This document shows positions 863-64,000 of a DNA stretch of 64,000 bases, one piece after another. Numbering within the stretch: position 1 is the first letter of the stretch; each line of letters starts with the position of its first letter. Location of the stretch: assembly GCA_963821615.1 (NCBI GenBank), contig CAWGEN010000012.1, positions 84,802 to 148,801 on the forward strand, given 5' to 3'. The stretch is from an uncultured Verrucomicrobiae bacterium (GTDB taxonomy: Bacteria; Verrucomicrobiota; Verrucomicrobiia; Chthoniobacterales; UBA10450). The notes beneath the pieces are model-generated. The model was given only the letters and a program-made list of their open reading frames with translations, did not search any database and was not told the DNA's origin. Made by a program: the position numbers and the translations under genes.

Positions 863-1575
863 CTACAATCCTTTCTCGTAGCGTCGCATCAGCTTGAAGA
901 AACGAATCGTGTCGCGCACCGGATGGATGCTGCTCACTTCATCGGAGTAAATGGTGCTGATCGGCACCGAGGCGATGCGGAACCCCTGCGCGGCTGGCAA
1001 TGATGAGCATCTCGGTCTCGTATTCGAAGCGGCTCGTGCCATCGAGCAGGTGCGGGGCGAGTGCGCGCTGGACCATGCGATAACCGCATTGCGTATCGGG
1101 CACGTCCTGACCGCAGAGCCGGCTGATGCGGCGGCTCATGTAGCGATTGACCTTCCGCCTAACGAACGGCATCTCGCGCACGTCGTTCATCCGCGTGCCG
1201 ACGAAGAGACCGGCCTCGGTCGCGGTCGCGGCGGCGAGAAAGCGGCCGATCTCTTCCGGCAAATGCTGGCCGTCGGCATCGAGCAGGACGATGAACTCGA
1301 TCTCTGCGACGCGCCAGCCAGTGGCGCAGGCCGGTCTTGATCGATTCCCCTTTCCCGACATTCACCGGGTGCACGATGACTTCCGCGCCGCCTTCGCGCG
1401 CGCGGGCCGCGGTCGCGTCGGTCGAGCCGTCGTCAACCACGAGGACGTGATCGAGTTGCGCGCGGGTCCGCTCGGCCACGCGGCGGACGTGCGCTTCCTC
1501 GTGATAGGCCGGGATGACGGCGGCGACGTTGCTGCGATCGAGCGGCCGGCCTGGTTGCGGGGCCGCGCGCTCCAT
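863..1575 (-). CDS. Family 2 glycosyltransferase (dolichyl-phosphate mannose synthase-like); needs about 2 frame corrections
   Basis: Joined from ORFs 1159..1713 and 939..1361: VIPAYHEE...[10 protein letters not shown]...LLDADGQH...DTQCGYRM. Removing one C from the run at 983-986 restores a C-terminus ending at TAG 863-865. Confidence 0.7.
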
Positions 1576-1577
1576 CG

Positions 1578-2468
1578 TTAGCGGACGACCGGATGAAAAT
1601 CCGCCGCGTGATAGGAGCTGCGGACGAGCGGCCCGGAGGCGACGTGCGCGAAGCCTTTCCGGCGCGCGATCTCGCCGTAGAGATCGAACTGCTCCGGGCG
1701 TGATGTAACTCACGACCGGCAGGTGCGTTCGGCGTCGGGCGGAGATACTGGCCCAACGTCAACACCTGGCAGCCGACTTCGCGCAGGTCGTCCATCGTCT
1801 GGAAAAGTTCCGGCTCCGTTTCGCCCAGGCCGAGCATGACACCGCTCTTCGTCACGACACTCGGGTGAGAGTTCTTTCGCGCGGCGCAGGACCTGGAGCG
1901 AGGTGCGGTATTTCGCGCGCGAACGAACGGCGGGCGTGAGGCGCTCGACCGTTTCCAGGTTGTGATTGAAAATCTCCGGCGCGGCGTCGAGCACGAGCTG
2001 GATGCACCAATCCTGGGCGTGAAAATCCGGGACGAGCACTTCGATGACGATCGAGGGATCCATCTCGCGAATGGCGCGAATGGTGCGCGCAAAATGTTCC
2101 GCGCCGCCGTCTTTCAAGTCATCGCGCGCGACCGCGGTGATGACGACGTGCTTGAGCTTCAGCCGCCGGACGGCTTCGGCGACGCGCTGCGGTTCATCTT
2201 CCTCGAGCGCGAAAGGCTTCGCCGTGCTCACCGCGCAAAATCCGCAGGCGCGGGTGCAGCGTTCGCCCGCGATCATCATGGTCGCGGTGCCCTGGCTCCA
2301 GCATTCCCAGCGATTCGGGCATTGCGCGCTTTCGCAGACGGTGTGCAGGCGCAGATCGGAGATGAGCGCCTTGGTCGAGAAAAAGACGGGATTCGATGGC
2401 AGCCGCACTTTGATCCAGGGCGGCTTCTGCGCCTGGTGCAATGCGGGATCGATCTTGGCGCAGGACAT
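1578..2468 (-). CDS. lipA: Lipoyl synthase; needs at least 3 frame corrections
   Basis: ORFs 1710..2468 and 1433..2092 carry [13 protein letters not shown] and [12 protein letters not shown] (radical-SAM and auxiliary Fe-S motifs) and GLGETEPEL. The hand-restored C-terminus is [11 protein letters not shown], ending at TAA 1578-1580. Confidence 0.85.
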
Positions 2469-2783
2469 TTGTCGGCGAAAAGTAGTTCAGCGTTCGACGC
2501 GTTGAAAAGCTAAAGCATTCGTAGAACTTAACGGCGCTTCAGGCTTAACTATTCATCGCTGTTCAACAGCATTCTCAGGCATCCGCAGTGCTTGGTCACG
2601 CAAAAGCTCTCGCATGGCACCTTCGCTCATCTCGAAATTGCGACTCTTCGCTGAACACCAATAGATCATGCGGGGCGGCAGGCTCAAGAGCAGCGAGCCG
2701 CGATTTCTCGTGAAGCGGACTGCCTCCTGCTTCGGTCTCGACTCGCGCAGCCGGCGCGCAAACGATCTGGAACACTCAATCCG

Positions 2784-5075
2784 GTGACTGGTTCCAGACG
2801 CGTCAATTGGTCCGACGGCGTCCCAGACTCGGCGACCGACGCGCAGATCAATAACGGCGGGACGCCCCAGATCGATGCTGCTGCCGCCACGGCCAACAAT
2901 TTGACTCTTGGCTTTGACGCGGGCGACTTCGGGAACTTGATCGTCTCCGGCATCGGCAGTCTCCAAGTCACACGGGGACTCTCAGTAGGTTTGGCGGGAA
3001 ACGGCAGCCTAACGATTCAAGGCGGGGCGATCGTGACCGATGACACCGCCGTAATCGGCAGTTTTCCGGATACCTCGGCCGGAACTGTCGTGGTCGACGG
3101 AGCCGGCTCGACTTGGACGAACAATACCTCCCTCGAGCGTGGGCGGGTTCGGGATCGGGAGCCTGATGGTTCTCAACGGCGGCGCCGTGACAGGCGAAAG
3201 TTGCTACCATCTCTTACGGCACACATCTCTTCTTCGGGAGCGGGAGTGTGCTCGTGGACGGAGCCGGCTCGAGCTTGAGTTGCAATCAGGCTCTCGTGAT
3301 CGAGATCGGGGGCAGCTTGAGCGTGCAGAACGGAGGCGTAGTCGTAAGCGATAGCGCGTCTGTGGACGGCAGTGTCACTCTCGACGGTGCGGGTTCGACG
3401 TGGACGACGGGAATGGTCTTTATTGCGCCATCCGACCTACGGGAGTTTGACGATTCGCAACGGGGCAATCCTGACGAGCGACGATCTCGCCTACATCTCA
3501 GATGGACCTTTTCCCGGATCTGTCACGGTGGATGGACCAGGCTCCAGATGGGATCACGACTTCGACCAAGTGCAGCTCTACGTCGGGTTTGGTGATCTCG
3601 GCGTCCTCGACATTGCGAATGGCGGCGTGGTTTCCACCTTTGCCGCCGGCGTCGGTGCCGAGGGCGGCGAACGGACAACTGCTGGTCGACGGCTCGGACT
3701 CGGCGCTGAACGGTGCGCACGAATCTTTCCATCGGCGGCGGCGACTTCGGTGATGGACCCGTACCCGGTGGGAGTCGGCCTCGCGCAGATCAGCGAACGG
3801 CGGTGCAATCAACAGCGAGACGACAACGGTCTTCGGCCAGGGCACAATCGTCGACGACGGAACCCTGACGACCACGAGCCATTGCCGTTTCTCCCGGAGG
3901 ACTGCTCAGCGGAAATGGGAGTGTCTCGGGAGACGTCGATAGCGCCGGCTCAGATCGCGCCCGGCGATCCGTTAGGCACGCTCGCGATCGTCGGAAATCT
4001 CACGCAGGAGGCCGCCGGCAAGTTGGTCTTCGAAATCAGTGGCGCGAGCGCTGACGCTCAGGGTCACTTGAGCATCACGGGCGACGCGACGCTCGACGGG
4101 ACGGTGGAGGTTCGATTCACGGACGGATTTCTCCCGGTGCAAGGTCAGGTCTTTGAGCTCATCGATGTGTCGCGGTCGGTTTCCGGTTCGTTCGCGCAGG
4201 TGATTTTCCCGGATCTCCGCTCCGGGTTCCAGTTCAGCGCGCAGTTTGTTAACGGCCGACTATCAGATCACGGCCTTGAGCGATGGTGCGCCGGCCGCGG
4301 GCCTGCTGAACATCTCCACCCGAGGGCAGGTCGGTCGTGGATGACGACGCGCTCATCGCCGGGTTCATCGTGACCGGGACCACGGACAAACAGGTAATCA
4401 TCCGCGGCCTCGGACCTTCGCTCGCCGCCGGTGGAATTTCGCCCTCCGATCTCCTGGCCGATCCCACTCTCGAGCTGCGCGACCAGACCGGCGCGTTGAT
4501 CACTTTCAATGACAACTGGATGGACAGCCCGCAGCGGCAGGCCATCATCGACAGTATGCTCGCGCCGAGCGACGATCGCGAAGCGGCGATCCTGGCGACG
4601 CTGGCTCCGGGCAGTTACACCGCGATCTTGCGCGGGGCCGGCGGAGGCACTGGCCTCGGGATTGTCGAAGTCTACAACCTCGGCCCGGACCTCAGCAGCA
4701 GTCTGGCAAACATTTCGACGCGCGGCCTCGTGAACACTGGCGATCAGGTCCTGATCGGCGGGTTCATTGTCGATGACCAGAACTCGATCGTCCTTCTGCG
4801 CGGGCTGGGCGCTTCTCTCGACATCGGCAGGCGTGAGTGACGCGCTCGCCAATCCAACGCTGGAGCTTCACGACGGCAATGGAGACGTGATCGCGTTCAA
4901 TGATGACTGGCAGCAAAGCGACGAGGCAATCATCCAGAATACGGGGCTCGCACCGCAATTCAGTGAAGAATCGGCCATCCTCACCACGCTCGGTCCCGGA
5001 GCCTTCACCGCGATCCTGCGCGGGCTGGATGACAGCAGCGGCGTAGGGCTGTTCGAGGTCTACAATCTGCGCTGA
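2784..5075 (+). CDS. Large secreted beta-helix repeat protein (autotransporter-passenger-like repeats) with two tandem C-terminal modules of about 150 aa; start uncertain; at least 4 frame corrections
   Basis: ORFs 2784..3278, 3248..3595, 3372..4373, 4337..4840 and 4767..5075 chain together. Repeats of the form VDGAGSTWT...NGGxV recur. The C-terminal duplication is NISTRG...GFIV...LRGLGPSL...DPTLEL.D..G..I.FNDNW...EVYNL, present twice. Confidence 0.6.
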
Positions 5076-5234
5076 CGGCGTGACCACGCTGAGTCGTTAG
5101 GCAATCAGGCGCATTGTTTTCTCTGCTCTCCGACGCGGCGAAAAATTGTTACCTTCGGCGCGCCAATCTGCCTGCGATGGCGGGCGTAAACCGGGTTCCC
5201 TTCCGGCGTTCGGCGAAACCACACAATCAGACGC

Positions 5235-5814
5235 TTACAACTTCGTGCGACCGGAGAGAGCGCGGTAGAGCGTCAGCTCGTCGGCCGATTCCAGGCCGCC
5301 GCCGGCGGGTAGGCCGTGTGCGATGCGCGTCAGCGTGACCGGATATTTCTTCAACAGCTCGACGAGATAGTTGGTCGTCGCTTCCCCCTCCACATCGGCC
5401 GCGAGCGCGAAAATGATCTCGTTCGGGCGATTCCTTTTCCACCCGCTCGAGCAACGACGCGATCCGCAGATCCTCCGGCGCGACCCGATCGAGCGGCGAG
5501 ATGCGTCCGCCTAACGAATGGTAGCGGCCGCGAAAGGCACTCGTCTTTTCCAGCGGCAGAATGTCGGTCGGCTGCTCGACGACGCAGAGCAATTCCCGGG
5601 CGCGCGACTCGTCGGCGCAGATTTCACATAGGTCCGCGGTCGCGAAGAAACCGCACTGCACGCAGGGATGGATCGCGGCCCGCGTCTCCGTGATGGCGCG
5701 CGCGATGCCCTCCGGCTGCTGATCGCGCGCCTGCACCATCCAAAGCGCGATGCGCTCGGCCGAGCGCGGACCGACGCCCGGCATCTGGCGCAATTGCGTG
5801 ATCAGCTCGCGCAA
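5235..5814 (-). CDS. recR: Recombination protein RecR; 1 frame correction near 5440
   Basis: ORF 5227..5814 shows LPGVGPRSAERIA (HhH), a CxxC...CxxC zinc finger (CVQCGFFATADLCEIC), and YHSLGGRISPLD (Toprim). The restored tail EGEATTNYLVELLK...GLPAGGGLESADE ends at TAA 5235-5237. Confidence 0.85.
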
Positions 5815-5838
5815 GCGCGGCGGGATATTCGGTTCGTT

Positions 5839-7104
5839 TCAAAGCGGGACGAGCGGTTCCGCGACCGGCGCGGGCTCGGTCGCGGTCTGCTGACAGAGCG
5901 GCTCGAGCCGCCGCAAATACCATTCGAGAGGCTCGTCGGACGCGCCGTTTTCGGCCCGCACCCGGTTGAATTCCGCAAACGCTTCGTTCCAGCGGCGCTC
6001 GCGAAAGTAAACGATCGCGGTCCAGAATCGGTCACGCCGCGCGATTTCTTCCGCGGTCGCCTTTTCCGCGAGCGCGAGGAGTTCATAAACTTCGAGCCGA
6101 TCGTGCGCCTCGTGGCTGCGCAGGAAATCGATCGGGCGCGCGACAATCGCCTTCCCAGCCGCGCTGAAAGTGCGTGGGCCGAGCAGAATTTCTGAACCGT
6201 AGATTTGGTTGGCGCGCGCCAGGCGCCGCGCGACTTCGAACGGCTCGCCCGCGATCACGATCTCGCGGCGCCCTGCACTCCTCCCGCATGGCCGCGACCA
6301 CCATCCCGGAACTGATCCCGATGCGGAGATCGACTTTGCCTAACGAATCCGGCCGGGCGGCGGCCGCGGCGTGAAATTCCTCCCGAAAAGCGAGCGCGGC
6401 GCGAGCCGCTTCGGAGGCGTGCTGCGGACTGCTCGTTCGGAAAGCCGAAAAGAACGCGGATGCCTTCGCCATCGGCCGCCTGCAGATAGCCGCCATCCTG
6501 CAGGAAACGCTTCCTCGCGCAGTCGATGAATTCGCGGGTCAATTGCGCGCAGGCCGCGGGCGGCAGGTCGTCGATCAGCTCCGCTTCATTGGCGATCTCG
6601 CAATAGACGAAGCTGGCTTCGCGCGCACTCGGCTCGAACAGGTTGAGCGGCTCGCTTTCCGTCAGGCGATCGATGCCGGCTTGCGCGAGACGGCCGGCAA
6701 AAGCCTGTGCGGTCGCCCGGCGCTGCCGGCTCGACTCGCGTCGCGTTCAGGCCAAGCGCGAGGAGGGTCGCGCCGGTCGCGGCGAGAATGGCCGGCAACG
6801 GCGGGAAGGAAAGATGGGCCGCGTGCAGCACCCAGGCGGCGCCGAGCAGTTCCAGGATGAGCAGAACGAAGAGACCGGCCTGACGCGCGATGCCCGTCAC
6901 CTGCAACATCGTCCACGCCACCGCGAAACTGAGCAGAATGAGAAAGAAGAAATTGCCAAATCCGACGGTGTCGTTAGGCGAGAGACCGATGGCCCTGCCG
7001 AGAGCGGCGGCGGGGCGGACGAGCAGTCCGCTCATTTGCAGCGCGATGGCCAACCCGGCGGCGACCGCGCCAATCCAGAGTGTCCCGAGCAGCGCGCGCT
7101 TCAT
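5839..7104 (-). CDS. Membrane-anchored class III adenylate/guanylate cyclase; at least 3 frame corrections
   Basis: ORF 6586..7191 is a multi-TM N-terminus starting MKRALLGTLWIGAV. ORFs 6255..6542, 6083..6496 and 5839..6258 give the cyclase core (DGEGIRVLFGFPNE, LRIGISSGMVVAAM, GEPFEVARRLARANQIYGSEILL). Confidence 0.65.
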
Positions 7105-11980: not shown

Positions 11981-13591
11981 CTACAGGTCGCACTCGCAGA
12001 CGATCCGGAACCCGAGGTCGTTGCAGGAATAGTTCGGCACATTTGAGCCGCGCGTCGTCGCCCGCAGGCTGTTGAAGCGCGACTTCCAACTCCCGCCCCG
12101 ATAGACCCGTTTCGCGCCCGAAACCGCTCCCCGCGGGTTGATCTTGGGCGTGCCGCGATAGGCTTCCAGGAAGTCGCTGCACCACTCCCAGACGTTCCCC
12201 GCCATGTCTTCCATTCCGAAGGGACTGGCGCCCCGCGGAAACGCGCCGACCGGCGAGCTTTCCGCGAAGCCATCGTCGATCTCGCGATCACTCCAGGCGA
12301 AGTCCGTGTTGCGATCGGCGAAATTCGCCAGATCACCACGCCGTTCCTGGTCTCCCCACGGATATTTGCGGCCATCCGTCCCGCGCGCCGCATATTCCCA
12401 TTCGGCTTCGGTCGGCAGGCGATAGCGCCGCCGTTCGCGCGAGCTGAGCCATTGGCAAAATTTCACCGCCTCGACGCTGCTCACATAAACCACCGGATGC
12501 CGATCGCCCGCACCGGGCGCGCGTTTGCCGGCGTGGCTTGGATCAAACAACTCATATTGCGCGTTCGTGATCGGGTGGCGGGAAAGGTAGTAGCAGCTCA
12601 GGGTCACCGTGCGTGATCGGTCGTTCGTTAGGCGCAGCGTCCGGCGCCTCGCTCCCCATCTGAAAAACACCGGATGGCACGAGCAACAGTTCAGCGCCGC
12701 TGCTGCTCGTAAAATTGGGAAACTGCGCCCGCTCGGTCGCGACGTCGATCGGCGTCGGAACCTTCGGCGCAGCAGGAGGCGCGGCGGCGGCGCCATTGGT
12801 GGAAGCGGCAGGCGCTTTCGGAGCTACAACAATGACAGGTTTCGACGGGGTCGGCGCGGCGTGTTCTTCGATTTCCTCCAGGTAGAGATCCACCAAATCC
12901 TCGGCATCACCCGGCTCGATCCCGAGATTTTCCGCCATGTTCACAAAGGCGTCGCGCTGGTCATCCGTCATGTCATCGCATCGAGCCCGCTCAGGCGCAG
13001 CATCCGCATGAAATCCTCCTTCGGATCGAGCGGAGCCTTGGTTTTCTCCGCGGCCGCCCTCGCTTCCGGCGTGGGCGGAGTCACCCGCACGCCGCCGCAG
13101 TCGCGCAGCTCCGCTTCGATCAGCTCCAGCATTCGCTCGTTCGGTCAGGCCCGTGTTGCCGGCCGAACTCCAGCAGGGTCTCTTCCTCCTGCGGACGAGA
13201 GCGTTTTATCGTTCAGGGCAAAGACGACGTATTTGTTGAACTCGGCGACAGCTTCCTCCTCGGCTTGCGCGGCCAACTCTTCGTCCACCTGGCGGCGACG
13301 CTCGGGATCGAGCAGTTCGACGCGGGCCTCGGTCAGATAACGCGACGATTCGTCGAGCCCGGAACGCAACAGCTGGGCGAGCGGATTGCTTGGCTGATTT
13401 TTCAGCGGCAGCTTCTTTTGCCACCACAGAAGCAATTCGCGAAAGCGCTCTTCGATCAGCTCGTTGCTCGGATTGGTCCGCGGATCAAGGCAGAGTCGCT
13501 CGTAAGGATCAGGCGAGTTGTAGCGGCTCCAGCCGTCCCACTTCCGCGGGTCATCCGGCAACGGAATCGGGAAGCTGATCGGCTTGAGCAT
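11981..13591 (-). CDS. Hsp70-associated multidomain protein: N-terminal J-like domain (no HPD), helical middle, Pro/Ala linker, C-terminal FGE-sulfatase (SUMF1/PvdO)-like domain; at least 3 frame corrections
   Basis: Joined from ORFs 13145..13591, hand-translated 12970-13200, 12552..12971 and 11981..12796. The C-terminus reads RLPTEAEWEYAARG...GNVWEWCSD...YRGGSWKSRFNSLRATTRG...LGFRIV. Confidence 0.65.
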
Positions 13592-15965: not shown

Positions 15966-17492
15966 TCAGCGCCTGCGAAAGAAGCGCCGGATCGCATCGA
16001 CCAGGCCCGGAATATCGTGGCGTGTCGCCTCGACTCCAATCGTTAGGCCACGATCGCGCGCGGTCTTCGACGTAATCGGGCCAATGCTCGCCACCTCCAT
16101 CCCCACCGGCCAGGGCAACCCGAGCGCGAGAAAATTTTCGACGGTCGATGAGCTGGTAAAAGTGATCATGTCTGCGCCCTCTGCCGACCAGCCGCGATCT
16201 CGCTTCTGTCCGATCGCTCGTTTCTGCGACGGTTCGGTAGGCAAAAGCAACATCCACAATGGCCCCCAGGGCTCCGAGCTCCTTTGGTAGCAGATCCCGC
16301 GCCTCCTCCGCCCGCGCAATCAGAATGCGCAGATTTTCGATGTCGCCTTCCTTCTTGAATTCGCGCACCACCGCTTCGGCGACAAATTCCTCCGGCTGCA
16401 GGTCCACCTTCAGATGAAAATCGCGCACCCGCTGCGCCGTCGCCGGACCGATCGCCGCAATCCGGGCTGCCGCCGATCTCACGCGCGTCGTCGTAAAGCT
16501 TGTAAAACATTTCAAAGAACGCGGTCACGCCGTTCGGACTCGTGAAGACGATCCAGTCGTAGGCGTGCGCGTCCTGCACCAGCTCGGCAAAGGCGCGCAG
16601 ATCGCTCGGCGGCTCGATCCGGATGGTCGGCAACTCGATCACTTCGGCGCCGAGATCGCGCAATTGGTCGCTCAGCGCGCCGGCTTGTTTCCGGGTGCGC
16701 GTCACCACGATCCGCCGGCCGGCCAGCGGCCGCTCATCCTGCCAGTGCAATTCCTTGCCTAACGAGACCACTTCGCCAAAAACGGCGACCGCCGGCGGCG
16801 CAAAATTCTTCTCCGCCACTCGCTGCGCGATGTTCTGCAATGTGCCGCGGATCGTTTCCTGCCGCCCGGTCGTTCCCCAGCGGATCAACGCCACCGGCAG
16901 ATCCACGCGGACGCCGTGCTCCATCATTTGTTGCGCGATGGCTTCGATCCGCTCGACCCCCATCAGCATCACCTGGGTTCCGCCCAGTTTGGCCAGCGCC
17001 TCGAAGTCGATCGAGCTCTCGGTTTTCTCCGGATCTTCGTGACCGGTGAAAAAGGTCACATGCGAAGTCATTCCGCGATGGGTCACCGGAATGCCCGCGT
17101 AGGCCGGTGCGGCAATCGCCGAGGTAACTCCCGGCACCACCTCGAAAGGCATTCCTGCCGCGGCCAACGCCTGCGCCTCCTCGCCGCCACGGCCGAACAG
17201 GAACGGATCACCGCCCTTTAACCTAACGACTTGTTTCCCTTCGCGCGCTCTTCTCGACCAGCAGCGCATTGATTTCGTCCTGCTTCAGAGTGTGCGCGCC
17301 CGCCTTCTTCCCGGCGTAGATGATCTCGGTCGTTTCCGGCGCCCACTGCAACATCTCGGGATTGCAGAGATAATCGTAGACAATCACTTCCGCCCGTTCG
17401 ATGAACTGCTTGGCGCGCAAGGTGACCAGCCCGAGATCGCCCGGCCCCGCGCCGACCAGATAACAGCGTCCGGACTCTTTCTTAGTCGCCAT
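15966..17492 (-). CDS. cobA/hemD: Fused uroporphyrinogen-III C-methyltransferase / uroporphyrinogen-III synthase; at least 3 frame corrections
   Basis: ORFs 17223..17492 (YLVGAGPGDLGLVTLRA), 16166..17269 (RLKGGDPFLFGRGGEE...VVPGVTS, then the HemD-like VVTRTRKQAG...WIVFTSPNGV), 15937..16515 and 15966..16319. Confidence 0.8.
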
Positions 17493-18392
17493 AGAGTTTC
17501 TCCATCAGTTCGGCCGCGAGCTCCTCGGGTTGCGCGGATGCGCCGCTCACGGCACCAGCTCGCGGCGCCAACGTCTCGTCTGCAAAAACCTGCGCTTGCA
17601 GCCGCAATTCTCTCATTCGTCATTGTTCGCCTGCACGCCCACCGGCGAATCGCAGTCCCCCTCAAGCAACCGCAGGAATTCGCGTTCGGCCCGCAGACAA
17701 ACCAGCGTCGGTTCGATCATTGATCGCATCGACCAGGTGCCGAACCCGTTCATCGTTGCGCCGCACTTGCAGGGCGATCACACCCTGCCCGCCCGCCGGG
17801 ACAAAATCTTCCGGTGAAAGAATCTCGCCTTCACCTCGAGACCGAGCCGCTCCAGGCCGGCGCGCGCCAGAATAATCCCGCTCCAATTTTCGTTTTCGTC
17901 CAACTTGCGCAACCGCGTCGGCACGTTGCCGCGCAGATCGACGATCCGTCAGATCGGGCCGTTTCCAACGCAGCTGACGCTGCCGCCGGACGCTGCCGGT
18001 CGCGATCGTCGCCCCTTGCGGCAAACTCGTTAGGCCGAGATCCGTTCTTCGTGACCAGGACATCTCCGGTTTGGCCACGCGGCAGAGCCGCGCAAATCTC
18101 CAGGTCGTCCACCCGTTCGCTCGGCAGATCCTTCGCGCTGTGCACCGCGAGGTCGATTCGCCTAACGAGAAGCTGCTTTTCAATCTCGCGTGTGAACATT
18201 CCCTTGCGACCGGCCTTGCGGTCCGCCACGGCCTCCGGGCGGGCGCTCTCGTCGCCGCTTGTCCGGATGATTTCTGATCGTCACTTCCAGCTCCGGCCAG
18301 GCGGCACGCAGCGCCTGCTCGACCAGCCGCGCCTGCGCAAGGGCAAGATCGCTGCCGCGCGACCCAACGATGATCCTGCCGGGCGCGCCCAC
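17482..18392 (-). CDS. hemC: Porphobilinogen deaminase (hydroxymethylbilane synthase); at least 3 frame corrections
   Basis: Fragments read [51 protein letters not shown] and [13 protein letters not shown]. The stop TAA at 17482-17484 overlaps the cobA/hemD start by 11 nt. Confidence 0.8.
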
Positions 18393-19457: not shown

Positions 19458-20255
19458 TAGAGCGAGTGTGTCTGCGACAGAAAAGTGATGCCCCAGAGCA
19501 AGGTCAGCGCCGCACTGAACGCGAGGACGCAAAGCGCGGCGATCCGGCGCGGAGCGGTCGTGCCGAGATGACGCGCGAGAAGGATCGCGGCGTAGAAGAT
19601 CCAGACGCCTAACGACCAGGCGATCTTCACGTAAGGCAGCGGCTGGCCGGTCAGAAAGCCGGCTGCGATCCCCAGCGTGAGCAAGACGAAATCCGAGCCA
19701 GAGCAAACGCGTGATCGCCGCGAAAAGATCAGTCAGCGGCGGGAAATGGTAGAACATCGAATTGATCTGGCGCGTCTTGAGCTGGCGCTCCTGCACGAGA
19801 TACATCAGGCCCGGCGACGCAGGCGAGCGCGAACGCCCCGTAGGCGATGAGCGAAACCGAGGCGTGCATTTCCAGCCACGGTGAGGGCGAAGCGACGCGC
19901 GGATGGGGGACGATCGATCGGCGCGAGCAAGCGCAAACGTCTGCAGCACGAAAACGAAGCGGCGCTGTGAACGCGCCCATCAGCGAGAGCCGATAGGCCG
20001 GTCCGATGAGGAGATAAATCAGCGAAACCGACCAGGCGAGAAAGATGAAGACCTCGAAAAGATTCGTCAGCGGGCAACGTCCGAGAGCGTGGCCGCGCAC
20101 CGAGAGAAAGGCGGTCTGAAAAACGAAACCGAGGGCGATGGCCGAAGAAGTTGAAACCAGCCGACGCGATAACTGCGCGCCTTGATCGCGACGGTCGTCC
20201 GCACCATCGCGAGAAAAAAACACAAGGTTGAGATGATCAGCAGTCCACGATCCAT
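19457..20255 (-). CDS. CcsA/HemX-like cytochrome c assembly family membrane protein; at least 3 frame corrections
   Basis: ORFs 20067..20426 (from MDRGLLIISTLCFF), 19729..20292, part of 18393..19949, and 19457..19684 (WSLGVWIFYAAILLARH). The stop TAA overlaps the hemA ATG by 1 nt. The position upstream of hemA matches Bacillus hemX. Confidence 0.6.
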
Positions 20256-23907: not shown

Positions 23908-23925
23908 TATCGTTAGGCCAAGAAA

Positions 23926-36584: not shown

Positions 36585-36613
36585 CAGCTTGGATGCCCGA
36601 CGCCTAACGATAC

Positions 36614-43128: not shown

Positions 43129-44592
43129 TCATCTTGCGATGCAGATGTTCTTCGGTTCGGTGAAGAAGCGGAGCGCTTCGTCGCCGCCTTCGCGGCCGAC
43201 GCCGCTTTGTTTCATCCCGCCGAACGGGACGCGCAGGTCGCGCACCAGCCAGCAGTTCACCCAGACGGTGCCGGTGTGAATTTGTTCCGCGACGCGGTGG
43301 GCGCGATTCAGGTTCTGCGTCCAGACGCTGGAGGCGAGGCCGTATTCGGTGTCGTTGGCGTAGCCGATGACTTCCTCTTCGCTGGTCGAACGGCGTGATC
43401 GTGACGACCGGGCCGAAGATCTCTTCGCGATTGACGCGGCAACCGACCGGCAGGCCGGTGATCACCGTCGGCGGAAAGAAATAACCGCCACTGCAGCGAT
43501 CGTTAGGCGGCGGGGGCGCGGAACCGCCGAGCGCGATCTGGCCGCCCTCCTCTCGCGCGAGCTCGACGTAGAACTTTACCTTCTCGAGCTGCGTCTGCGA
43601 AACAATCGCGCCCTGGTCGGTCGTTGCTTCGAGCGGATCGCCCACCCTGAGCTGCGCCGTTCGTTCGACAAATCGCCTAACGAATTCGTGATAAGCCGGT
43701 CGCTCGACGAAGACACGCGAGCCACAGAGGCAGACCTGGCCTTGATTGGCGAAGGACGAGCGCACGCTGCCGGCGATGGCCGCGTCCAGGTCGGCGTCGG
43801 CGAAAATGATGTTCGGGTTTTTTCCGCCCAAGTTCGAGCGACACTTTCTTAAAGAGCGGCGCGCCCGCTTCCGCCACCTTGCGTCCGGTCACTGTCCCGC
43901 CCGTAAATGAAATCGTGCCGATCTTCGGGTGCGCGGTGATCGCCGCGCCGACATTCGGCCCGGTGCCGTGCACGATGTTGAGGACGCCGTTAGGCAGACC
44001 AGCTTCGCCGACAGATCTCGCCCAGCAAGAAGCCGGTCATCGGCGTCAGCTCGCTCGGTTTCGCAACGGCCGTATTGCCGACCGCGATGGCGGGCGCGAT
44101 TTTCCAGCTGAGCAAATAGAGCGGCAGGTTCCAGGGCGAGATGAGACCGACGATGCCGCGCGGCTGGCGCAGCGTGTAGTTGAAGGCGACGCCGTCCGTC
44201 ATGTGCGCTTCGTTCTCGGTGTGTAGGATCGCGGTTGCAAAGAAGCGGAAATTGCTCGAGGCGCGCGGAATGTCGAGGCTGCGGGCGAGCGAGAGCGGTT
44301 TGCCGGTATCGATCGATTCCGCGCGGGCGAATTTCTCGAGATCGCGATCGATCAGATCGGCGATGCGCAGGAGAATGCGCGAGCGTTCGGCCGCGGGCGT
44401 GCGTGACCATGCGGGAAACGCTTTCTCCGCCGCGGCAACCGCCAGTTCGACATCGCGGCTGTCGCTGTCGGGCACTTGCGAATACGGCTTGCCGGTCGCC
44501 GGCTCGATGTTGTCGAGATATTTGCCGCCGATCGGCGCAACGAATTGGCCGTCGATGAAGTTCTGAATCTTGTCGAGCTGAGTCGTACGCAT
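43129..44592 (-). CDS. NAD(P)-dependent aldehyde dehydrogenase; at least 3 frame corrections
   Basis: ORFs 43990..44592, 43677..43973 and 43040..43831 give FTGGTVTGRKV, ELGGKNPNIIF and QGQVCLCGSRVFV (catalytic Cys). The restored end GREGG...PKNICIAR precedes TGA 43129-43131. Confidence 0.85.
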
Positions 44593-44601: not shown

Positions 44602-45635
44602 CTATAACGATTGCCGCAAAACGCGCAGCCAGTTGCCGCGCAGAATTTTCTCAATCTGTTCGTCGCTAAAACCGCGCTCGATCAACTTTCGTGTCAGGTT
44701 GCGGGCGTGGGCATGGTTGCCCAGGTCCGGGAGGTAATGCGGCTTGGTGAGCTTGGCTTCCAGCTTCTCGCGTTCGGCGGCCGGCAGCAGCGCCGAGCAG
44801 GAGTTCGCAGAAGTCGAAACCGATCGCCACGCCATCAATTCCGATGAGATTCGCCACGTGTTCGATGTGATCGACATAACGATCGAGCGTCGCCTCTTCC
44901 TTCTTCGCGCTGACGAGAATCGCGTTGATCCCGATGACGCCGCCGCGCGCGCCGATCATCTTGATCTGGTCGTCGCTGATGTTGCGTTCGATGTCGTAAA
45001 AGTGGCGCGCGTTGGTGTGGGAAACGATCAGCGGCTTCGTGCGTTAGCGCGCAGATTTCCTCAAAGCCGGCGGGATTGATATGCGCGAGATCGAGAATGA
45101 TCCCGAGGCGCTCGCATTCCTGCACCAACTCGCGGCCGAAGGTCGTTAGGCCGGTGGAGGGTGAGCCGCTGGCGGCAAAAATTCCGCCGGCCGCGGCGGC
45201 GTTTGTCCTCGCATGGGTGAGCGAGATGGCGCGCAGTCCCAGCTCATGAAAGATTTGCAGCAGGTTAAGATCGTCGCCCAATGGCTCCGCCCCTTCCATC
45301 GTGAGGAGAAGCGCGATTCGACCTGCGACCCGGGCCTGCTCGATTTCCGCAAATGTCTTGCAGAGCACGAGACGAGGCGTGGCTTCCAGTTCCGCCTTGA
45401 GCAGGGCTACCTGATCGAGCGCGACGCGCAGTGATTGGTCGGGCACGTATTGGTCCTCGACGTAAAGCGCGACGCCGAGCACTCCGATGTCGCCAGCCTC
45501 AAACTCCGGCAGGAAATCCGGCGCGATGATGTTCCGGCGCGGGCGACTCAAAAAGAGAATCAGCGGCAGATCGAAGTGCAGATCAATCAAGCCGCCGGTA
45601 TGGAGCCGCGAGATTCTTTCCTCAGCCGTGTTCAT
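44602..45635 (-). CDS. M19-family membrane dipeptidase; 2-3 frame corrections
   Basis: IDLHFDLP; LLLTMEGAEPL; ISLTHARTN; ILDLAHINPAGF; SHTNARHF (restored frame); IGIDGVAIGFDF. Confidence 0.75.
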
Positions 45636-46772
45636 TCCGGTTGATCTCCGTCGAGAATGGCCTGGGCCGCAACCTCGTTCGCGCCACCTTTACCCAATTT
45701 GGCGATGACCTCATCGAAATCGGCCAACATCTCGCTGACGGACCTCGTGGTCGTCGAGCAGTTTCATGACTGCTCGCGCAATCTCGAAGGGTTGTGCCTT
45801 TCCCTGAATGAATTCGGGAACGATTTCGCGACCCGCGAGCACGTTAGGCATGCCAAGATGTCTTACCCGAATCAACATCCGGCCGGCCAGATAGGTTATC
45901 TCCGCCACCTTGTAGACGAGGACAAAAGGCAGACGAAAGAAAGCCGCTTCCAGTGTGGCGGTGCCGGATGCGACCACAGCCGCCGCGCTCTTCTGCATCG
46001 TCTCCGCCGCCCGGCCGACCACGACTTCGACTTGGCCTAACGAACCGGACACTGCCTCCAAATTGTGCCGGATTGCGATAGCGAGAGCTTCCGAAGCGGC
46101 GGCAATCTGAAAGCGCAAATCTGGCCGTTCCTTGTGCAACTCGCGCATCACCTCGATCAAGATTGGCAATAGCTTGCGTACCTCGCGCGCCCGGCTCCCG
46201 GGGAAGAGTCCGATCAGATGCGGAGCGCGCAGGCCTTCGATGCGTCTCGCTTCCAGATCCTCAATCATCGGATGACCGACAAAAATCGCGCGCAACCCGG
46301 ATTGTTTGTAGAGTTCGGCCTCAAAGGGAAAAATGCAGAGCATCAGGTCAAGCCAGCGCGCCATCTGCGGAATGCGGCCGCGGTTCCAGGCCCAGACCTG
46401 AGGGCTGATGTAATAGATGACTTTCCCGCCTAACGAACCTTCGTGAAGCGTGCGCGCGAGACGAAGGTTGAAACCCGGATAGTCGATGAGAACCACGGCC
46501 TCCGGTTTGGCCTGAGCGATCTCGCGCAGGGTCTTTCGAAATTCGCGCCGAAAATATGGATAGTGCTTCACCACTTCCCAAAGGCCGACCACGCCCGCTT
46601 CATCGCTCCAATCGAGGAACCGTTCGCCCGCCGCTGCCTTCATCCGCGGACCGCCTCGACCCAATAATTGAAGGTCCGGTTGCAAGCGGCGCAGCGCTTG
46701 CATGAGCGCGGCCCCGTGATTGTCGCCGCTCGCCTCTCCGGCAACGAAGTAGATGCTCAGCGGCCGATCCAT
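45632..46772 (-). CDS. lpxB: Lipid-A-disaccharide synthase; 1 frame correction near 45725
   Basis: ORF 45711..46943 read from MDRPLSIYFVAGEASGDNHGAAL: DYPGFNLRLAR, YYISPQVWAWNRGR, GLFPGSRAREV and ASGTATLEAA. The TGA overlaps the next ATG (ATGA). Confidence 0.85.
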
Positions 46773-47759: not shown

Positions 47760-48350
47760 ATGAAGCAAACGCAAACTGATTGGGACGAAGCCTATCGCCG
47801 GCGCGAGACGCCGTGGGAGAAGGGAATACCGCACCCCGCGTTGCTGGATTTTCTGGCGGAAAATGGACCGCTCGCCGGAGAGATTTGCGTTCCGGGCTGC
47901 GGCTCCGGCCATGACGTGCGCGCCCTCAGCACACCGCAAAATCATGTGCTGGGAATCGATCTTGCGCCGCGCGCGATCGCGAAAGCGAATTCACGGCCGC
48001 GAATCGCAAATGAAGAATATCTTCTTGCTGATTTCTTCGACTTGCCGGCGAGATTCGATCACCAGTTCGACTGGGTTTTCGAGCATACCTGTTTTTGCGC
48101 GATCGATCCCGGCGAGCGGAACGAGTATGTCGCGACTGTCGTTAGGCTCTTGAAACCGGGCGGGAAATTGCTCGCGATCTTTTTCCCTAATCCGGACCAC
48201 GATGAACCTGGGCCGCCCTACCGGGTGAGCACGGCGGAACTGGATGAGTTCTTCGGCGCGCATTTTTCGTTGGAGCGAGAGTGGGTTCCAGCGCATACAC
48301 ATCCGGGACGGGAACAACGCGAGCTAGTGCGCGTCCTACGCATGCGCTGA
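47760..48350 (+). CDS. SAM-dependent methyltransferase, thiopurine/halide methyltransferase-like
   Basis: Intact 196-aa ORF: WDEAYRRRETPWEKG...CVPGCGSGHDVRAL...GIDLAPRAI. Confidence 0.65.
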   Translation: MKQTQTDWDEAYRRRETPWEKGIPHPALLDFLAENGPLAGEICVPGCGSGHDVRALSTPQNHVLGIDLAPRAIAKANSRPRIANEEYLLADFFDLPARFDHQFDWVFEHTCFCAIDPGERNEYVATVVRLLKPGGKLLAIFFPNPDHDEPGPPYRVSTAELDEFFGAHFSLEREWVPAHTHPGREQRELVRVLRMR

Positions 48351-51282: not shown

Positions 51283-52233
51283 TTAAGATCCTGGGCGTGC
51301 GGAAGCACGTTCTTCCGTGAACCACTTGTAGGTCTGCGCGATACCTTCGCGGAGCGGAATTCTTGGTTTCCAGCCTAACGATTCGATTTTCGAAATGTCG
51401 AGCAACTTGCGTGGGGTGCCGTCGGGCTGGCTTCTGTCCCAGGTCAGCTCGCCGCGAAACCCGACCACGTCGCAGATCAACTCCGCCAGCTCGCGAATCG
51501 TCAGGTCGGTTCCGGTACCGATGTTGATGATCTCGGGGCTATCGTAATTCCGGAGCAGGAAAAGGCAGGCCGAAGCCAGGTCGTCGACATGGAGAAATTC
51601 GCGCCGTGGCGTTCCCGAGCCCCAGACCACGATTTCACGCGCGCCGTTCGCTTTCGCCTCGTGCGCCTTGCGCAAGAGCGCGGCGAGAACATGCGAAGTG
51701 TCGAGATTGAAGTTGTCGTTAGGCCCGTAGAGATTTGTCGGCATGGCCGAGATGAAATTTGCACCGTATTCGCGGGCATAAGCCTGGCAAAGCTTGATCC
51801 CGGCGATCTTGGCAATGGCGTAGGCTTCATTCGTCGGTTCAAGCGGTCCGCCTAACAACGCGCTCTCCGGGATCGGCTGCGGCGCATGTTTCGGATAAAT
51901 GCAGGAGCTGCCGAGGAAGAGTAGCTTGCGCACACCGTGGGTGTGGGCGGCATGGATCAGGTTGTTCTGGATCTGCAGATTCTCGAGGAGGAACTCGACT
52001 GGCCGATCTTTGTTCGCCTTGATTCCGCCCACCTTCGCCGCCGCCACAACGACAATCGCGGGCTTTTCCCGGGCAAAGAATTCCTCGACTCCATGGCGAT
52101 TCGTCAGGTCAAGTTCGGCCCTGGTGCGGGTCAACAACCGGGCAAAACCTTCCGCTCGCAGCTTCCGAACAGCGGCGCCGCCAACGAGACCGCGATGGCC
52201 GGCGATGAAGATCGATTCGTCCTTTTCCATCAA
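51283..52233 (-). CDS. fcl: GDP-L-fucose synthase
   Basis: Intact 316-aa ORF: [13 protein letters not shown]; AAAKVGGI; [10 protein letters not shown]; NLYGPNDNF; [16 protein letters not shown]. Confidence 0.9.
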
Positions 52234-53834: not shown

Positions 53835-55079
53835 ATGGCCTACCTGAACGAAAATTATCTCAAGCTCCAGGCGGGTTACCTTTTTCCCGAGATCGGGCGG
53901 CGGGTGAAAGAGTTTTGCGAAGCGAATCCCGAGGCCGCAAAACGGCTGATCCGCTGCGGAATCGGCGACGTGACCGAGCCGTTGCCGCCGGCCGCGGTGG
54001 CGGCAATGAAGACGGCGGTGGATGAGCTTTCCGTGCGCGAGACCTTTCGCGGCTACGGCCACGAACAAGGCGGCGATTTCCTGCGGAGCAAGATCGCGCA
54101 GATCGATTATCGCGATCGCGGGAATCGAGATCGCGGACGACGAGATCTTCGTCTCCGACGGATCGAAGAGCGATTGCGGATTCATCCTCGACGTGCTCGG
54201 CGACCGGAATCGGATTGCGATCACGGACCCGGTTTATCCGGTCTATGTCGATACCAACGTGATGGCGGGACACACCGGACCGGCGGATGAATCGGGCCGC
54301 TATGAAGGGATCATTTACCTGCCGTGCCGCGCCGAGAATGGCTTCGTGCCGGAGCCGCCTGACGGAACACGCGGATATCGTTTACCTTTGCTTCCCGAAC
54401 AATCCGACCGGCGCGGTGGCGACGCGCGCGCAGCTCGAGCGCTGGGTCGCCTACGCGCAGGAGCACCACGCGCTCCTGCTCTACGACGCGGCCTATGAGG
54501 GTTACATCAGCGAGCCGGGAATCCCGCGGTCGATCTTTCGAAATTCCGGGCGCGACGGAGTGCGCGGTCGAGTTCCGCAGCTTTTCGAAGACCGGCGGGT
54601 TCACGGGCGTGCGTTGCGGATTCACGGTGATGACGAAGCGGCTTCTTCTCCAGACGAACGACGGACGCGAGCTGCCGCTCCATCGGCTCTGGCATCGGCG
54701 TTGGAGCACGAAGACGAACAGTGTGAGCTACCCGGTGCAGCGCGGGGCGGAGGCCCTTTACAGCGCGGAAGGCCGGACGCAGGTGCGCGGGTTGATCGAT
54801 CATTACATGGGCAATGCGCGCATCCTGAGCGAGGCCGCGACGCGGGCCGGCCTGGGCGTCTACGGCGGGAAGAACGCGCCTTACATCTGGGTCCGGACGC
54901 CAACCGGCCTAACGAGCTGGCAAATGTTTGATCGGATGTTGCACGATCTGAACGTCGTCATCACACCGGGCAGCGGATTCGGCTCGGAGGGCGAAGGCTA
55001 CTTCCGCATCTCCGCCTTCAACAGCCGGGCGAACGCGGAGGAAGTGGCGCGACGACTCGAAGCAGCCTCCTTTTCCTAA
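53835..55079 (+). CDS. dapL: LL-diaminopimelate aminotransferase; 3 frame corrections
   Basis: [16 protein letters not shown]; GIGDVTEPL; [15 protein letters not shown]; [10 protein letters not shown]; [16 protein letters not shown] (PLP Lys); APYIWV...[17 protein letters not shown]. Confidence 0.85.
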
Positions 55080-61500: not shown

Positions 61501-61750
61501 CGCGACCGTTGCGGGTCACTTCCCGCTCGTGCTCGTAACCGGCGCCGGCGCCAAAGCGCGTAACTCGATCGGTCTGGTCCTCGTGGGCGGAATGAGCATC
61601 GGCACGATCTTTACTCTCTTCATTGTGCCGTCGCTCTATGTGCTGATCGCGCGGACGCACAACGAAGGTGCGAAAGAAAAGTCTCCCGACGCGCGCGAGC
61701 CGGAAAGGCCGCGGGAACCCGAGTTGGTGCCTGAATTCGCCGACGCCTGA
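58594..61750 (+). CDS. RND-family (AcrB/HAE1-like) inner-membrane efflux transporter; 4 frame corrections
   Basis: ORFs 58594..59505, 59366..59563, 59613..61094, 61006..61563 and 61475..61750: FIRRPVLALVVSL...; SVGLVVDDAIVVVENVERH; GLISKNAILIVEFAN; RLRPILMTTIATVAG. Confidence 0.85.
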
Positions 61751-61806
61751 GAAACGGGGTTGGTCGCAGAGAACGGGGTCAGCGATCCAGGCGACAGCCA
61801 GATTCA

Positions 61807-64000
61807 CTACGCTTCCTTCGCTGCGATTTCGCTGCACGCTTGCAGGTCGAGCTTACCCGTCGCCAGCACTGGGATTTGCTCGACCCGTCTGATCACTTTC
61901 GGAATCCAGAGATTCGGCACCCCGGCGTCGCGCAAATCCGACCGGAGTTGCGCCTGATCGATCTCGATCGCGCTCAGGAGAACGAGCGCCTCGCCCTTTT
62001 GCGGATCGACCACAGACGTCACTGCGAGCATTCGTTCTCCTTCATTGCTCAGCTTCAGCGCGGCCAGAATCTTTTGTTCCACCGTCTCGTGCGGCACCAT
62101 TTCTCCGCCGATCTTGGAAAAGCGCGAGAGCCGGCCTTCGATAAAAAGAAAGCCGTCCTCATCGAAGCGTCCGAGGTCCCCGGTCTTCAGCCAACCCTCC
62201 TGCAGCACTTCGGCCGTGCGCTCGGGATCGCCGCAGGTAGCCCTCGAAAATATTCGGGCCGCGCAGCCAGAGCATGCCGGACGCATGGAGCGAGAGCCTG
62301 GCTCCCGTTTCCGGATCGCGGATCTCCGCCGCGATTCCCGGCGCCATTTTCCCAACCGACCCGGGCCGCTGCGAAGGCTGCACCGGATCGCCTGGGTTAT
62401 CCGGTTCCGGATCGGGCAGGTTCACGCTCACGACCGGCGAAGTCTCCGTCAGGCCATAGCCTTCGTAGACCGGTTTACCAAAACGATCGGCAAAAGCGTC
62501 GGCCAGGCTGCGCGGCAATTTCTCCGCGCCGGTGATCGTTAGGCGCACACTCTTCATTTGCTCCGGCTCCGCTTTGCGCAGGTAGCCGCGCAGGAAAGTC
62601 GGCGCTGCCAGCACGAGGGTGACGCGATGGCGTTCGATCAGCTCCGCGCATTTCGCCGTCTCGAGCGGGTTCGGATAGGTGACGATGCGCACGCCCGTCG
62701 ATGAGCGGAAACCAAAGCGTGACCGTGCAACCAAAGCTGTGGAAAAATGGGAGCGAAGCGAGGATCAGATCTTCACGCGTCGCGTCGAGCATGGCGCGGA
62801 ACTGCGAGACGTTGCCAATCAGATTGCGGTGACTCAGCACAACGCCTTTGGGATCGCCCGAACTGCCGCTGGTGAAGAGGAGGACGGCCTCGGCGTGGTC
62901 CCCTTCCCGCGGAATTTCAAGCAATCGAATGAGCCAGCCAGCCGGCAGGAAGACTGCCGCCATCCACCAGAGAAAAATCCGGGCCTTCAACCTGGGGAGC
63001 AACTCATCCAGTTGCACCACATGCTCCGGCCACGGAAAATCCGTCAGGCGTTTGGCAAAAGCGTTCGCGGAAATGGCGACTTTCAATACCGGCAATTTGC
63101 TGCGCGCGCTCGAGTGCGGCGCGCCCGCTCGTGAAATTCAAACCAACCGGTACCTTACCCGCCAGTACGACCGCAAGGTTCGCCACCACGCCACCTTTGC
63201 TCGCGGGCAGGACAATGCCGATCCGGTCGTCGGGAAAATTCTTGCGCAGCGATCGACTCAGCGCTGCAGCCACGCCGAGCAGCTTTCCGCGGCTGAGCGA
63301 ACTCTGATCCATCCCTTCGATGACCGCGGTCCGAAAAGGATGACGCGCCAGGCCGCGCACCGCGGCCTGCGCCGAGATGCCCGCGCAAGGCCGGGCGCCG
63401 GCTGTAGCACCTTTCGCCCAGCTTGAGCAGTTCCTCCCGCACCGTCGCGATATCGGCCTCGTTAGGCGTAAGCGGCTCCCCGAATTCCACCGTCGCGGGA
63501 TACGGAATCCGCCGCGGCCATTTGGTGAAAAAGCGCTGACCTTGGAAGGAAAAAATGGAACCCCAGAGTTGATCGAGCCAGACCGGCACGACCGGTCCGT
63601 CAGCCTGCCGCGCGATGATCTCGTAGCCGCGCCGCAACCGCAGAAGAGTGCCGGAACGCGTCAGTTGCCCTTCCGGGAAAAGACAGACGATTTCGCCATC
63701 GCGAATCTTTTCGGCTGCCAAACGCATCGCATCCTTCGCCCGGCGCGCCGTAATCGGGATGCAACCGACGGCGCGCAGGATGGGATGCAGGAAACGGTTC
63801 TTGTAATATTCCTGGTCGATGATGAAGCGAATCGGCCGTGGACAGGCAACCAGGAGGATGAGCGCGTCGACCCACGTGATGTGGTTGGGCAAAAGCAAGA
63901 ATCCGCCGCGCGGCAAACGCTCCGTGCCGACCGCCGTGACCCGATAAATCAGCCGCACAAGCGGCAACCCAAAGAAACGCAAGACGCGCTCGGCGGCGGA
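61807..64000 (-). CDS. Aas-like bifunctional acyltransferase / acyl-ACP (AMP-forming) synthetase; at least 4 frame corrections; probably continues beyond the right edge
   Basis: ORF 63155..63982 has PNHITWVD (HX4D) and [13 protein letters not shown] 62475..63095 has [18 protein letters not shown]. ORFs 62159..62734 and 61807..62355 give GYGLTETSP and GWLKTGDLG. The reading frame is open to position 64000. Confidence 0.7.

Follow-up and report, generated by a model that had tools for sequence, protein, structure and literature searches.

Genomic words of extreme abundance have been described for the DNA uptake sequences (DUS), the uptake signal sequences (USS) and HIP1, a highly iterated palindrome (bioRxiv 10.64898/2026.06.24.733823; bioRxiv 10.1101/2025.10.24.684340). 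In the literature searched, words connected with DNA uptake come from two families of proteobacteria, and HIP1 may be one more instance (bioRxiv 10.64898/2026.06.24.733823; bioRxiv 10.1101/2025.10.24.684340). HIP1 has been reported to enhance transformation in a methylation-dependent manner (bioRxiv 10.64898/2026.06.24.733823), and about half of all DUS and USS copies lie in terminators, where >90% of their inverted pairs are found (bioRxiv 10.1101/2025.10.24.684340). Here we describe a 9-base word, GCCTAACGA on one strand and TCGTTAGGC on the other (W1), in a 64-kb stretch of DNA from an uncultured Verrucomicrobiae bacterium (contig CAWGEN010000012.1, positions 84,802 to 148,801; "the window") and in related genomes. 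W1 is a hyperabundant, lineage-specific genomic word in a phylum for which none has been reported in the literature searched; full-text searches on W1, on a second word (W2) described below, and on Verrucomicrobia or Udaeobacter together with competence or uptake sequences returned only primers and unrelated papers.

An exact search of the window detected 38 copies of W1, with 20 plus-strand and 18 minus-strand occurrences, corresponding to 0.59 per kb. Dinucleotide-preserving shuffles gave an expectation of 0.26 copies (the highest of 100 shuffles had 3), and order-1 and order-2 Markov models gave 0.28-0.30, such that the enrichment over composition is ~130-fold. When the 9-mers of the window were ranked, W1 came first by about two-fold over the runner-up (19 copies), and every one of the remaining top-ranked enriched 9-mers was a shifted version of W1. 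Variants changed at base 1 or base 9 were also in excess (15 observed vs 1.3 expected). Internal one-mismatch variants were not enriched (16 observed vs 11.5 expected), and those changed at position 4 were depleted (0 vs 4.95 expected), including the near-cognate GCCGAACGA (0 vs 3.0 expected). The flanks of 198 non-orthologous copies were nearly uninformative, at ≤0.17 bit per position, with only a slight tendency towards Y, Y, C upstream and A downstream. The W1 sequence is non-palindromic, and the copies are spaced randomly (coefficient of variation (CV) 0.98 vs 0.96 for random placement), with no quasi-periodicity. Pairing is rare, as inverted pairs within 40 nt were seen for only 2 of ~400 copies; the sole close inverted pair in the window, formed by the copies at 24787 and 24876, is 80 nt apart. 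These data bear out an earlier note on the window, which had counted 38 copies against fewer than one expected per 64 kb, about 15 variants at the first or last base and no excess of internal mismatches. All but two of its coordinates were correct (31734 should read 31735, and 45144 should read 45143), and the flanks, which it had described as unconserved, indeed hold almost no information apart from the weak preferences above.

The best database matches of the SecDF encoded in the window are to uncultured soil Chthoniobacterales/'Spartobacteria' (Verrucomicrobiota). Relatives were collected with a SecD scan, which provided 80 loci of ≤22 kb (denoted by L-numbers) from Chthoniobacterales/Udaeobacter metagenome-assembled genomes (MAGs), one genome per species, with varied accession prefixes and contig-naming styles indicative of many projects and assemblers; for the MAGs with isolate names starting with "MFD", the contig names suggest assembly from long reads. 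W1 was the top 9-mer in ~25 of these species-level loci, with densities of 0.36-1.53 per kb. For the 27 W1-rich sources (26 loci and the window), 356 copies were found where 2.6 were expected, a 135-fold enrichment and a density of 0.63 per kb over 564 kb. The 54 SecD loci that are not W1-rich (831 kb) still contained 43 copies vs 3.4 expected (12.8-fold), a residue that may stem from low activity, from imported DNA or from a remnant in decay. Contigs of unrelated phyla had one copy vs 1.1 expected. Among close relatives, the density of W1 differed three-fold over the same syntenic 22 kb, and several Chthoniobacterales lineages had neither W1 nor W2. A scan of Joint Genome Institute (JGI) metagenomes with alanine dehydrogenase found no close W1-clade relatives at this second region; it yielded the negative controls from other phyla and further W2-rich contigs. 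A search for W1-rich phages, made by scanning viral contigs for pairs of W1 copies at most 30 nt apart, returned 34 matches, all of which were chance pairs or local tandem repeats.

We also noted that one locus, L048 (JBLMXD010000119.1), is titled 'Alphaproteobacteria bacterium' even though its SecD is 78% identical to that of the window; it is probably a misbinned Chthoniobacterales contig. Other abundant k-mers in the relatives were considered as dispersed words and rejected as ordinary tandem or repetitive extragenic palindromic (REP)-like repeats. In L018, AGTTGAGAG is inflated by a heptamer tandem, AGTTGAG (1441-1470 and 9891-9990), and in L053, GGGCGAGAC is inflated by REP-like inverted GGTAGGGCGAGACTC pairs (1301-1400 and 4949-5030). 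Clusters of AATGACGAA at 19340-21030 of L046 and 126-bp in-frame tandem repeats at 7338-9250 of L037 inflate k-mer counts in the same way.

Most W1 copies are intragenic. A simple gene caller based on third-position GC content (GC3) and codon scores covered only 58-70% of the window because of frameshifts, and frames were therefore assigned by local codon-score analysis. In the window, all four stop-free frames were used, giving Ser-Leu-Gly (~10 copies), Val-Arg (~10), Leu-Thr (9) and Pro-Asn-Asp/Glu (9), with about one third of the calls being weak because the assembly is rich in frameshifts. For the 125 independent copies, from the window and from relatives, that could be framed with confidence, the corresponding numbers were 35, 20, 36 and 34. 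No polarity was apparent: copies were sense and antisense at 18:20 in the window, the 20:18 distribution between its strands had no switch point, and the orientation over independent copies was 84:89. A 75% strand skew is rejected for the window at p = 0.002. Locally, the orientation of W1 can be lopsided, as in L022 (JBBSED010000001.1; 14:1), L024 (13:4) and L011 (9:3), with overall independent sites at the 84:89 given above.

To assess conservation, positions 1-24 kb of the window were aligned to the SecD loci, for which nucleotide identity is 76-82% within the W1 clade. Across 22 W1-clade loci, the nine W1 positions were 93% identical (each 86-99%) with no three-base periodicity, while the flanks were 75% identical and showed codon periodicity, with third codon positions at 55-70%. 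The intact 9-mer was kept in 101 of 152 site-genome comparisons, vs 15.8% for other 9-mers. In 20 relatives lacking W1, the positions of the W1 sites were 60% identical vs 69% for the flanks, and the intact 9-mer was found in 0 of 78 comparisons. Given this conservation in W1 genomes and its absence from W1-less relatives, W1 is a derived word, held at the DNA level only in the genomes that carry it. Sites ranged from those common to 15-19 genomes down to those found in a single genome, for which the relatives differ at 2-5 of the nine bases. Three outlying W1 genomes (L029, L052 and L050) have only two old sites in common with the main clade and otherwise carry private copies. In every W1 genome, a W1-poor stretch of 4.6-8.4 kb covers the highly conserved and most constrained genes, namely clpX-like, yajC and secDF, suggesting that protein constraint limits where the word can settle.

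The alignments also document how copies originate. New copies were made in place by clustered substitutions, both synonymous and non-synonymous. In six genomes, the recR codons ACG-CTG-ACG-CGC (TLTR) were changed to AGC-CTA-ACG-AGG (SLTR). A secD site changed from GCCGAGCGT to GCCTAACGA in L028 and L018, whose perfect copies look convergent, and L021 has GCCTAACGT. In cobA/hemD, GCCGAGCGA became GCCTAACGA with a Ser-to-Asn change. The substitutions that create W1 include several kinds of transversion.

Several statements of the earlier note can be revisited in light of these observations. The use of all four stop-free frames was correctly described, with counts (9, 6, 10 and 8 over 33 genic copies) that differ from ours, and its examples of coding context, YHSLGG of RecR (5509) and an Fcl-like NLYGPNDNF (51716), were both recovered. 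The absence of strand and transcription bias was also seen by us, at 20:18 for the strands and 18:20 rather than 18:15 for sense and antisense copies. The note had proposed that the word is accommodated by the coding sequence rather than inserted into it, which agrees with copies at orthologous positions arising by substitution. It had suggested looking in orthologues for synonymous or conservative changes; synonymous changes were found, but so were non-synonymous ones. Finally, it had raised the prospects that the enrichment might be confined to the window, might stem from a repeated element or an amino-acid motif, or might come with a leading-strand skew. The ~25 related species are W1-rich, and we looked for and found no sign of the others.

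A distinct dispersed word, W2 (cAAGATCGACAw), dominates a Candidatus Udaeobacter-like sister clade, reaching 1.9 per kb. It was present at 0.4-1.0 per kb in the W2 loci of this clade (L030, L031, L036, L038, L040, L044-L046, L049, L055, L056, L063, L067, L070 and L072, as well as L084, L085, L091, L094, L106 and L138) and was also found at the second genomic region, in JGI contigs. The footprint of DNA-level conservation described for W1 recurs for W2 in W2 genomes, and the orientation of W2 is unskewed (39:37). The two words can coexist: in L050 (JAJPGZ010000012.1, 1-22256), 42 copies of W2 (1.9 per kb) are interleaved with 13 copies of W1 (0.58 per kb), most of the latter being private and not common to the main W1 clade. 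W2 contains the overlapping palindromes GATC and TCGA. Kinship between the sequences of W1 and W2 was considered and dismissed, as the only A[AT]CGA they have in common is not convincing. Collectively, a strong force that ignores position and orientation favours the exact 9-mer in one lineage; this force is balanced by protein constraint, and its specificity has been replaced in sister lineages.

We infer biased DNA uptake as the force behind the word. That W1 is a DUS/USS-like self-recognition word, built up by biased uptake and recombination, is an explanation about which we are evenly divided, and we rank it first based on the extreme enrichment, the occurrence in independent assemblies, the lineage restriction, the DNA-level conservation, the creation of copies in place, the range from widely shared to private sites, the lack of polarity, the depletion of the near-cognate GCCGAACGA, the scarcity in the most constrained genes and the existence of a second word. 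By analogy with DUS and USS, a DNA receptor at the surface or in the periplasm, part of an apparatus for natural transformation, would bind double-stranded DNA bearing W1 in either orientation, and W1-bearing fragments would consequently be taken up and recombined more often. Mutations that improve near-matches would then be over-transmitted (molecular drive), and copies would accumulate wherever the protein tolerates Ser-Leu-Gly, Val-Arg, Leu-Thr or Pro-Asn-Asp/Glu. The DUS/USS signature claimed in the earlier note (density, exactness, both orientations and any frame) stands, and comparative data that the note did not have strengthen it: the spread over ~25 species, retention at the DNA level, origin by point substitution, the lack of strand skew and the different word of a sister clade. 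A typical feature of DUS and USS is absent, as W1 copies do not lie in terminators.

A number of points weigh against uptake. No competence or receptor gene was seen in the window or the 80 SecD loci, a regular-expression search of the same sequences for the prepilin leaders of pilin genes had 0 matches, and no report of natural transformation in Verrucomicrobia was found in the literature searched. W1 is mainly intragenic and its inverted pairs are rare, unlike the terminator-borne DUS and USS, and W1 and W2 have no obvious common core, whereas DUS dialects differ by few bases. In addition, any position-blind process that favours the word, such as a repair ratchet or an abundant DNA-binding protein, would give the same comparative signatures; a site for an abundant DNA-binding or modification system is also the alternative that the earlier note had offered.

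One such process would be HIP1-like, with W1 serving as the target of a DNA modification enzyme or of a word-directed mismatch-correction 'ratchet' by which near-cognate sites, when heteroduplex or damaged, are repaired towards the word, with no uptake involved. We consider this unlikely. W1 is non-palindromic and comprises nine contiguous bases, while the usual methyltransferase sites are shorter than that, and its random spacing is not the quasi-periodic one of HIP1. Repair of the T:G-specific, very-short-patch type would not yield the transversions seen in the creation of copies, and the window has no gene for a DNA methyltransferase or repair nuclease, its sole methyltransferase belonging to the TPMT family, which acts on small-molecule substrates. 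Nevertheless, conservation beyond codon constraint and creation in place are reported for HIP1 too, and a methylation-plus-repair ratchet has been proposed for it (bioRxiv 10.64898/2026.06.24.733823). The depletion of GCCGAACGA fits conversion towards W1, and the GATC and TCGA palindromes inside W2 are likewise in keeping with a HIP1-like word.

We are equally doubtful that W1 is bound by a chromosomal protein of high abundance, for example a nucleoid-associated or condensin-loading factor or another that acts genome-wide, with copies kept for a chromosome-level function. Such a binding site could account for the conservation of exactly nine bases at the DNA level, for the independence of orientation and for the genome-wide scatter through housekeeping genes. 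However, the three-fold variation in density between close relatives over the same syntenic 22 kb, and entire sister lineages that lack the word or have an unrelated one, are hard to reconcile with an essential structural role. The sites known as parS and matS, those of Noc and SlmA, and the FtsK-orienting polar sequences (KOPS) are far rarer, palindromic, polar or regionally restricted, which also counts against this explanation.

Both words might instead be the product of an undescribed word-writing process, a sequence-directed repair or gene-conversion system of exchangeable specificity that converts near-matches all over the chromosome to a lineage-specific 9-12-mer and has no role in uptake. 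Such a process, which we regard as rather improbable, would explain the replacement of W1 by W2 between sister clades, the coexistence of the words in one genome and the 12.8-fold trace, which would be decaying after loss of the system.

A polar signal for recombination (RecBCD/AddAB) or segregation (FtsK), similar to Chi or KOPS, is very improbable. Chi sites are, like W1, lineage-specific over-represented words of core genes, but neither W1 (20:18 in the window, 84:89 over independent copies) nor W2 (39:37) shows the skew of a polar signal, and a ~130-fold enrichment of a 9-mer is far above the few-fold typical of Chi. Trivial causes, namely fragments of repeat elements (REP, miniature inverted-repeat transposable elements (MITEs) or insertion sequences), a peptide motif, codon bias or an assembly artefact, are scarcely credible, for although the assembly of the window is error-prone (~40 single-base insertions in 21 kb) and ordinary repeats inflate other k-mers in some relatives, the flanks of the 198 independent copies are nearly uninformative, four frames and both strands are used, the footprint has no codon periodicity, copies lie at orthologous positions and arise by substitution rather than insertion, and W1 is found in MAG assemblies of differing accession prefixes and contig-naming styles.

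If the uptake explanation is right, W1 and W2 would constitute a third or fourth independent case of sequence-specific uptake words, and natural transformation with kin discrimination would be predicted in bulk soil, given that the host group, Chthoniobacterales/Candidatus Udaeobacter, belongs to the most abundant bacteria of soil and has yet to be cultured. The explanation would also suggest adding the word to donor DNA for genetics in these organisms. Genomes that have W1 (for example CBDCJI010000002.1, CAVUNK010000009.1 and DASXEB01), W2 (DASXNN01 and JBEEGW01), both words (JAJPGZ01) or neither word (CAVTTH010000003.1 and JBEEHV01) offer a ready phylogenetic-profiling design for finding the receptor, and the words can be used as sequence tags to assign contigs to these lineages and to spot DNA of foreign origin in them. 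Even with a cause other than uptake, a strong force still rewrites coding sequence, amino acids included, across whole genomes.

The genes of the window are ordinary housekeeping genes. They comprise genes for DNA and chromosome functions (recR, SMC), protein handling and export (a clpX-like AAA ATPase, yajC-secDF, M20 and M48 peptidases), metabolism (cobA/hemD, queC, alanine dehydrogenase, aldehyde dehydrogenase, a TPMT-family methyltransferase and a Gfo/Idh/MocA-family oxidoreductase), and the envelope and transport (an amino-acid permease, lpxB, a GDP-fucose-synthase-like epimerase and an AcrB/RND-type efflux transporter). Many are split. In the first 21 kb of the window, ~40 single-base insertions relative to 6-12 relatives interrupt many genes, including secDF, and the M20 and M48 peptidase, SMC, aldehyde dehydrogenase and acrB genes are fragmented elsewhere. 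The insertions, which are not located at W1 copies, suggest either that the assembly is error-prone (probably built from long reads) or that the genome is decaying. The open reading frame (ORF) holding the copies at 43500 and 43675 is probably, as judged by eye, a frameshifted continuation of the aldehyde dehydrogenase gene, with Pfam covering only the neighbouring fragment (43993-44601).

Table 1. W1 copies and other features of the window. "Perfect in x/y" gives the number of genomes with an intact W1 among those aligned at the site; aa, amino acids.
Feature	Positions	Strand	Frame and context	Aligned genomes and remarks
W1	1157..1165	+	antisense GTT-AGG (Val-Arg)	3 including the window: perfect 2, ACCTAACGA 1
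W1	3007..3015	+	sense CTA-ACG (Leu-Thr)
W1	5094..5102	-	probably non-coding; codon score low
W1 in recR	5509..5517	+	TCG-TTA-GGC, YHSLGG	old shared site, perfect in 17/20
W1	6338..6346	+		old shared site, perfect in 19/20
W1	6971..6979	-	sense CCT-AAC-GAC (Pro-Asn-Asp)	old shared site, perfect in 15/20, one mismatch in 5/20
W1	12625..12633	-	CCT-AAC-GAA	common to outlying W1 genomes L029, L052, L050; GCCGAACGA or similar in W1-less relatives
W1	16040..16048	-	CTA-ACG (Leu-Thr)	perfect in 6/17
W1 in cobA/hemD	16757..16765	+	TCG-TTA-GGC	old shared site, perfect in 15/17
Near-cognate ACCTAACGA	17221..17229	+		orthologous to perfect W1 in relatives: 10/17 aligned main-clade genomes, plus L029, L052, L050, L030
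W1	18027..18035	-		perfect in 8/15
W1	18160..18168	+	antisense GTT-AGG	perfect in 10/16
W1	19607..19615	+	TCG-TTA-GGC	perfect in 7/15, one mismatch in 5/15
W1	22970..22978	+	CTA-ACG
W1	23170..23178	-	adjoins queC start
W1	23910..23918	-	coding call weak
W1	24787..24795	+	inverted-pair partner of 24876
W1	24876..24884	-	inverted-pair partner of 24787
W1 in amino-acid permease gene	26992..27000	-	antisense GTT-AGG
W1	31735..31743	+	coding call weak
W1 at M48 peptidase gene end	31916..31924	+
W1 in 571-aa ORF	34081..34089	-	CTA-ACG
W1 in 571-aa ORF	34323..34331	-	CCT-AAC-GAA
W1	36602..36610	+	coding call weak
W1	38080..38088	+	coding call weak
W1	39303..39311	+	CCT-AAC-GAT
W1	41952..41960	-	CCT-AAC-GAC, LGARPNDEW
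W1	42106..42114	+
W1 in minus-strand ORF downstream of aldehyde dehydrogenase fragment	43500..43508	-	CCT-AAC-GAT
W1 in same minus-strand ORF	43675..43683	+	antisense GTT-AGG
W1	45143..45151	-	CTA-ACG
W1 in lpxB	46035..46043	+	TCG-TTA-GGC
W1 in lpxB	46428..46436	+	TCG-TTA-GGC
W1 in TPMT-family methyltransferase gene	48139..48147	-	antisense GTT-AGG
W1 in GDP-fucose-synthase-like epimerase gene	51373..51381	+	TCG-TTA-GGC
W1 in GDP-fucose-synthase-like epimerase gene	51716..51724	-	CCT-AAC-GAC within NLYGPNDNF
W1	54907..54915	+	CTA-ACG, TPTGLTSW
W1	62536..62544	-	CTA-ACG, SVRLTITG
W1 in acyltransferase gene	63459..63467	-	CCT-AAC-GAG
W1-poor stretch	6971-12625			~7.8-16.4 kb in L005, L015, L016, L021, L022, L024
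Single-base insertions, examples within 5400-20700	5424, 5814, 7152, 10806, 16470, 18276, 18960
571-aa ORF	33719-35431	-	good score; no Pfam match
273-aa ORF	21709-22527	+	good score; no Pfam match
N-terminal Walker-A fragment	38352-38861	+	AAA_23/SMC_N-type ATPase (RecF, RecN, SbcC or OLD-like)	remainder lost to frameshifts

Comparison with known repeats and words sets W1 apart from several of them. REP and MITE repeats are conserved beyond their core, mostly intergenic and spread by insertion, none of which applies to W1. Chi sites (for example GCTGGTGG) resemble W1 in being lineage-specific, over-represented words of core genes, and they mark 'self' DNA for recombination; they are, however, 5-8 nt long, few-fold enriched and strongly co-oriented with replication, whereas W1 has 9 nt, is ~130-fold enriched and is unskewed. 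The cyanobacterial HIP1, GCGATCGC, is likewise a short word that is hyperabundant across a phylum or clade and conserved at orthologous positions beyond codon needs, and its function, long unknown, has now been linked to transformation (bioRxiv 10.64898/2026.06.24.733823). W1 is asymmetric, with random spacing, whereas HIP1, described as quasi-periodic, is an octameric palindrome whose GATC core is methylated by known enzymes.

The uptake words are closer. DUS and USS number hundreds to thousands per genome (~1 per kb), far more than composition predicts. Like W1, Neisseriaceae DUS (10-12 bp) are hyperabundant, show no polarity, have clade-specific variants and are conserved in core genes, and a genome may contain more than one variant. 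DUS are mostly intergenic and often form terminators as inverted pairs, have dialects that vary by 1-3 bases around a core that is conserved, and have the minor pilin ComP as their proven receptor, none of which is seen for W1. Pasteurellaceae USS, with the 9-bp core AAGTGCGGT / ACAAGCGGT, differ from W1 in that the sequence is unrelated and from a different phylum, in the AT-rich flanking segments that W1 lacks and in the location of about half of the copies in terminators; for USS there are, in addition, an uptake bias and a candidate receptor (ComN). USS also occur as two types in sister clades, as do W1 and W2, though the USS types share most bases and W1 and W2 do not. Like W1, USS are non-palindromic, are present at ~1 copy per 1-2 kb in both orientations, have many intragenic copies in tolerated frames, occupy orthologous sites across species and are made by point mutation.

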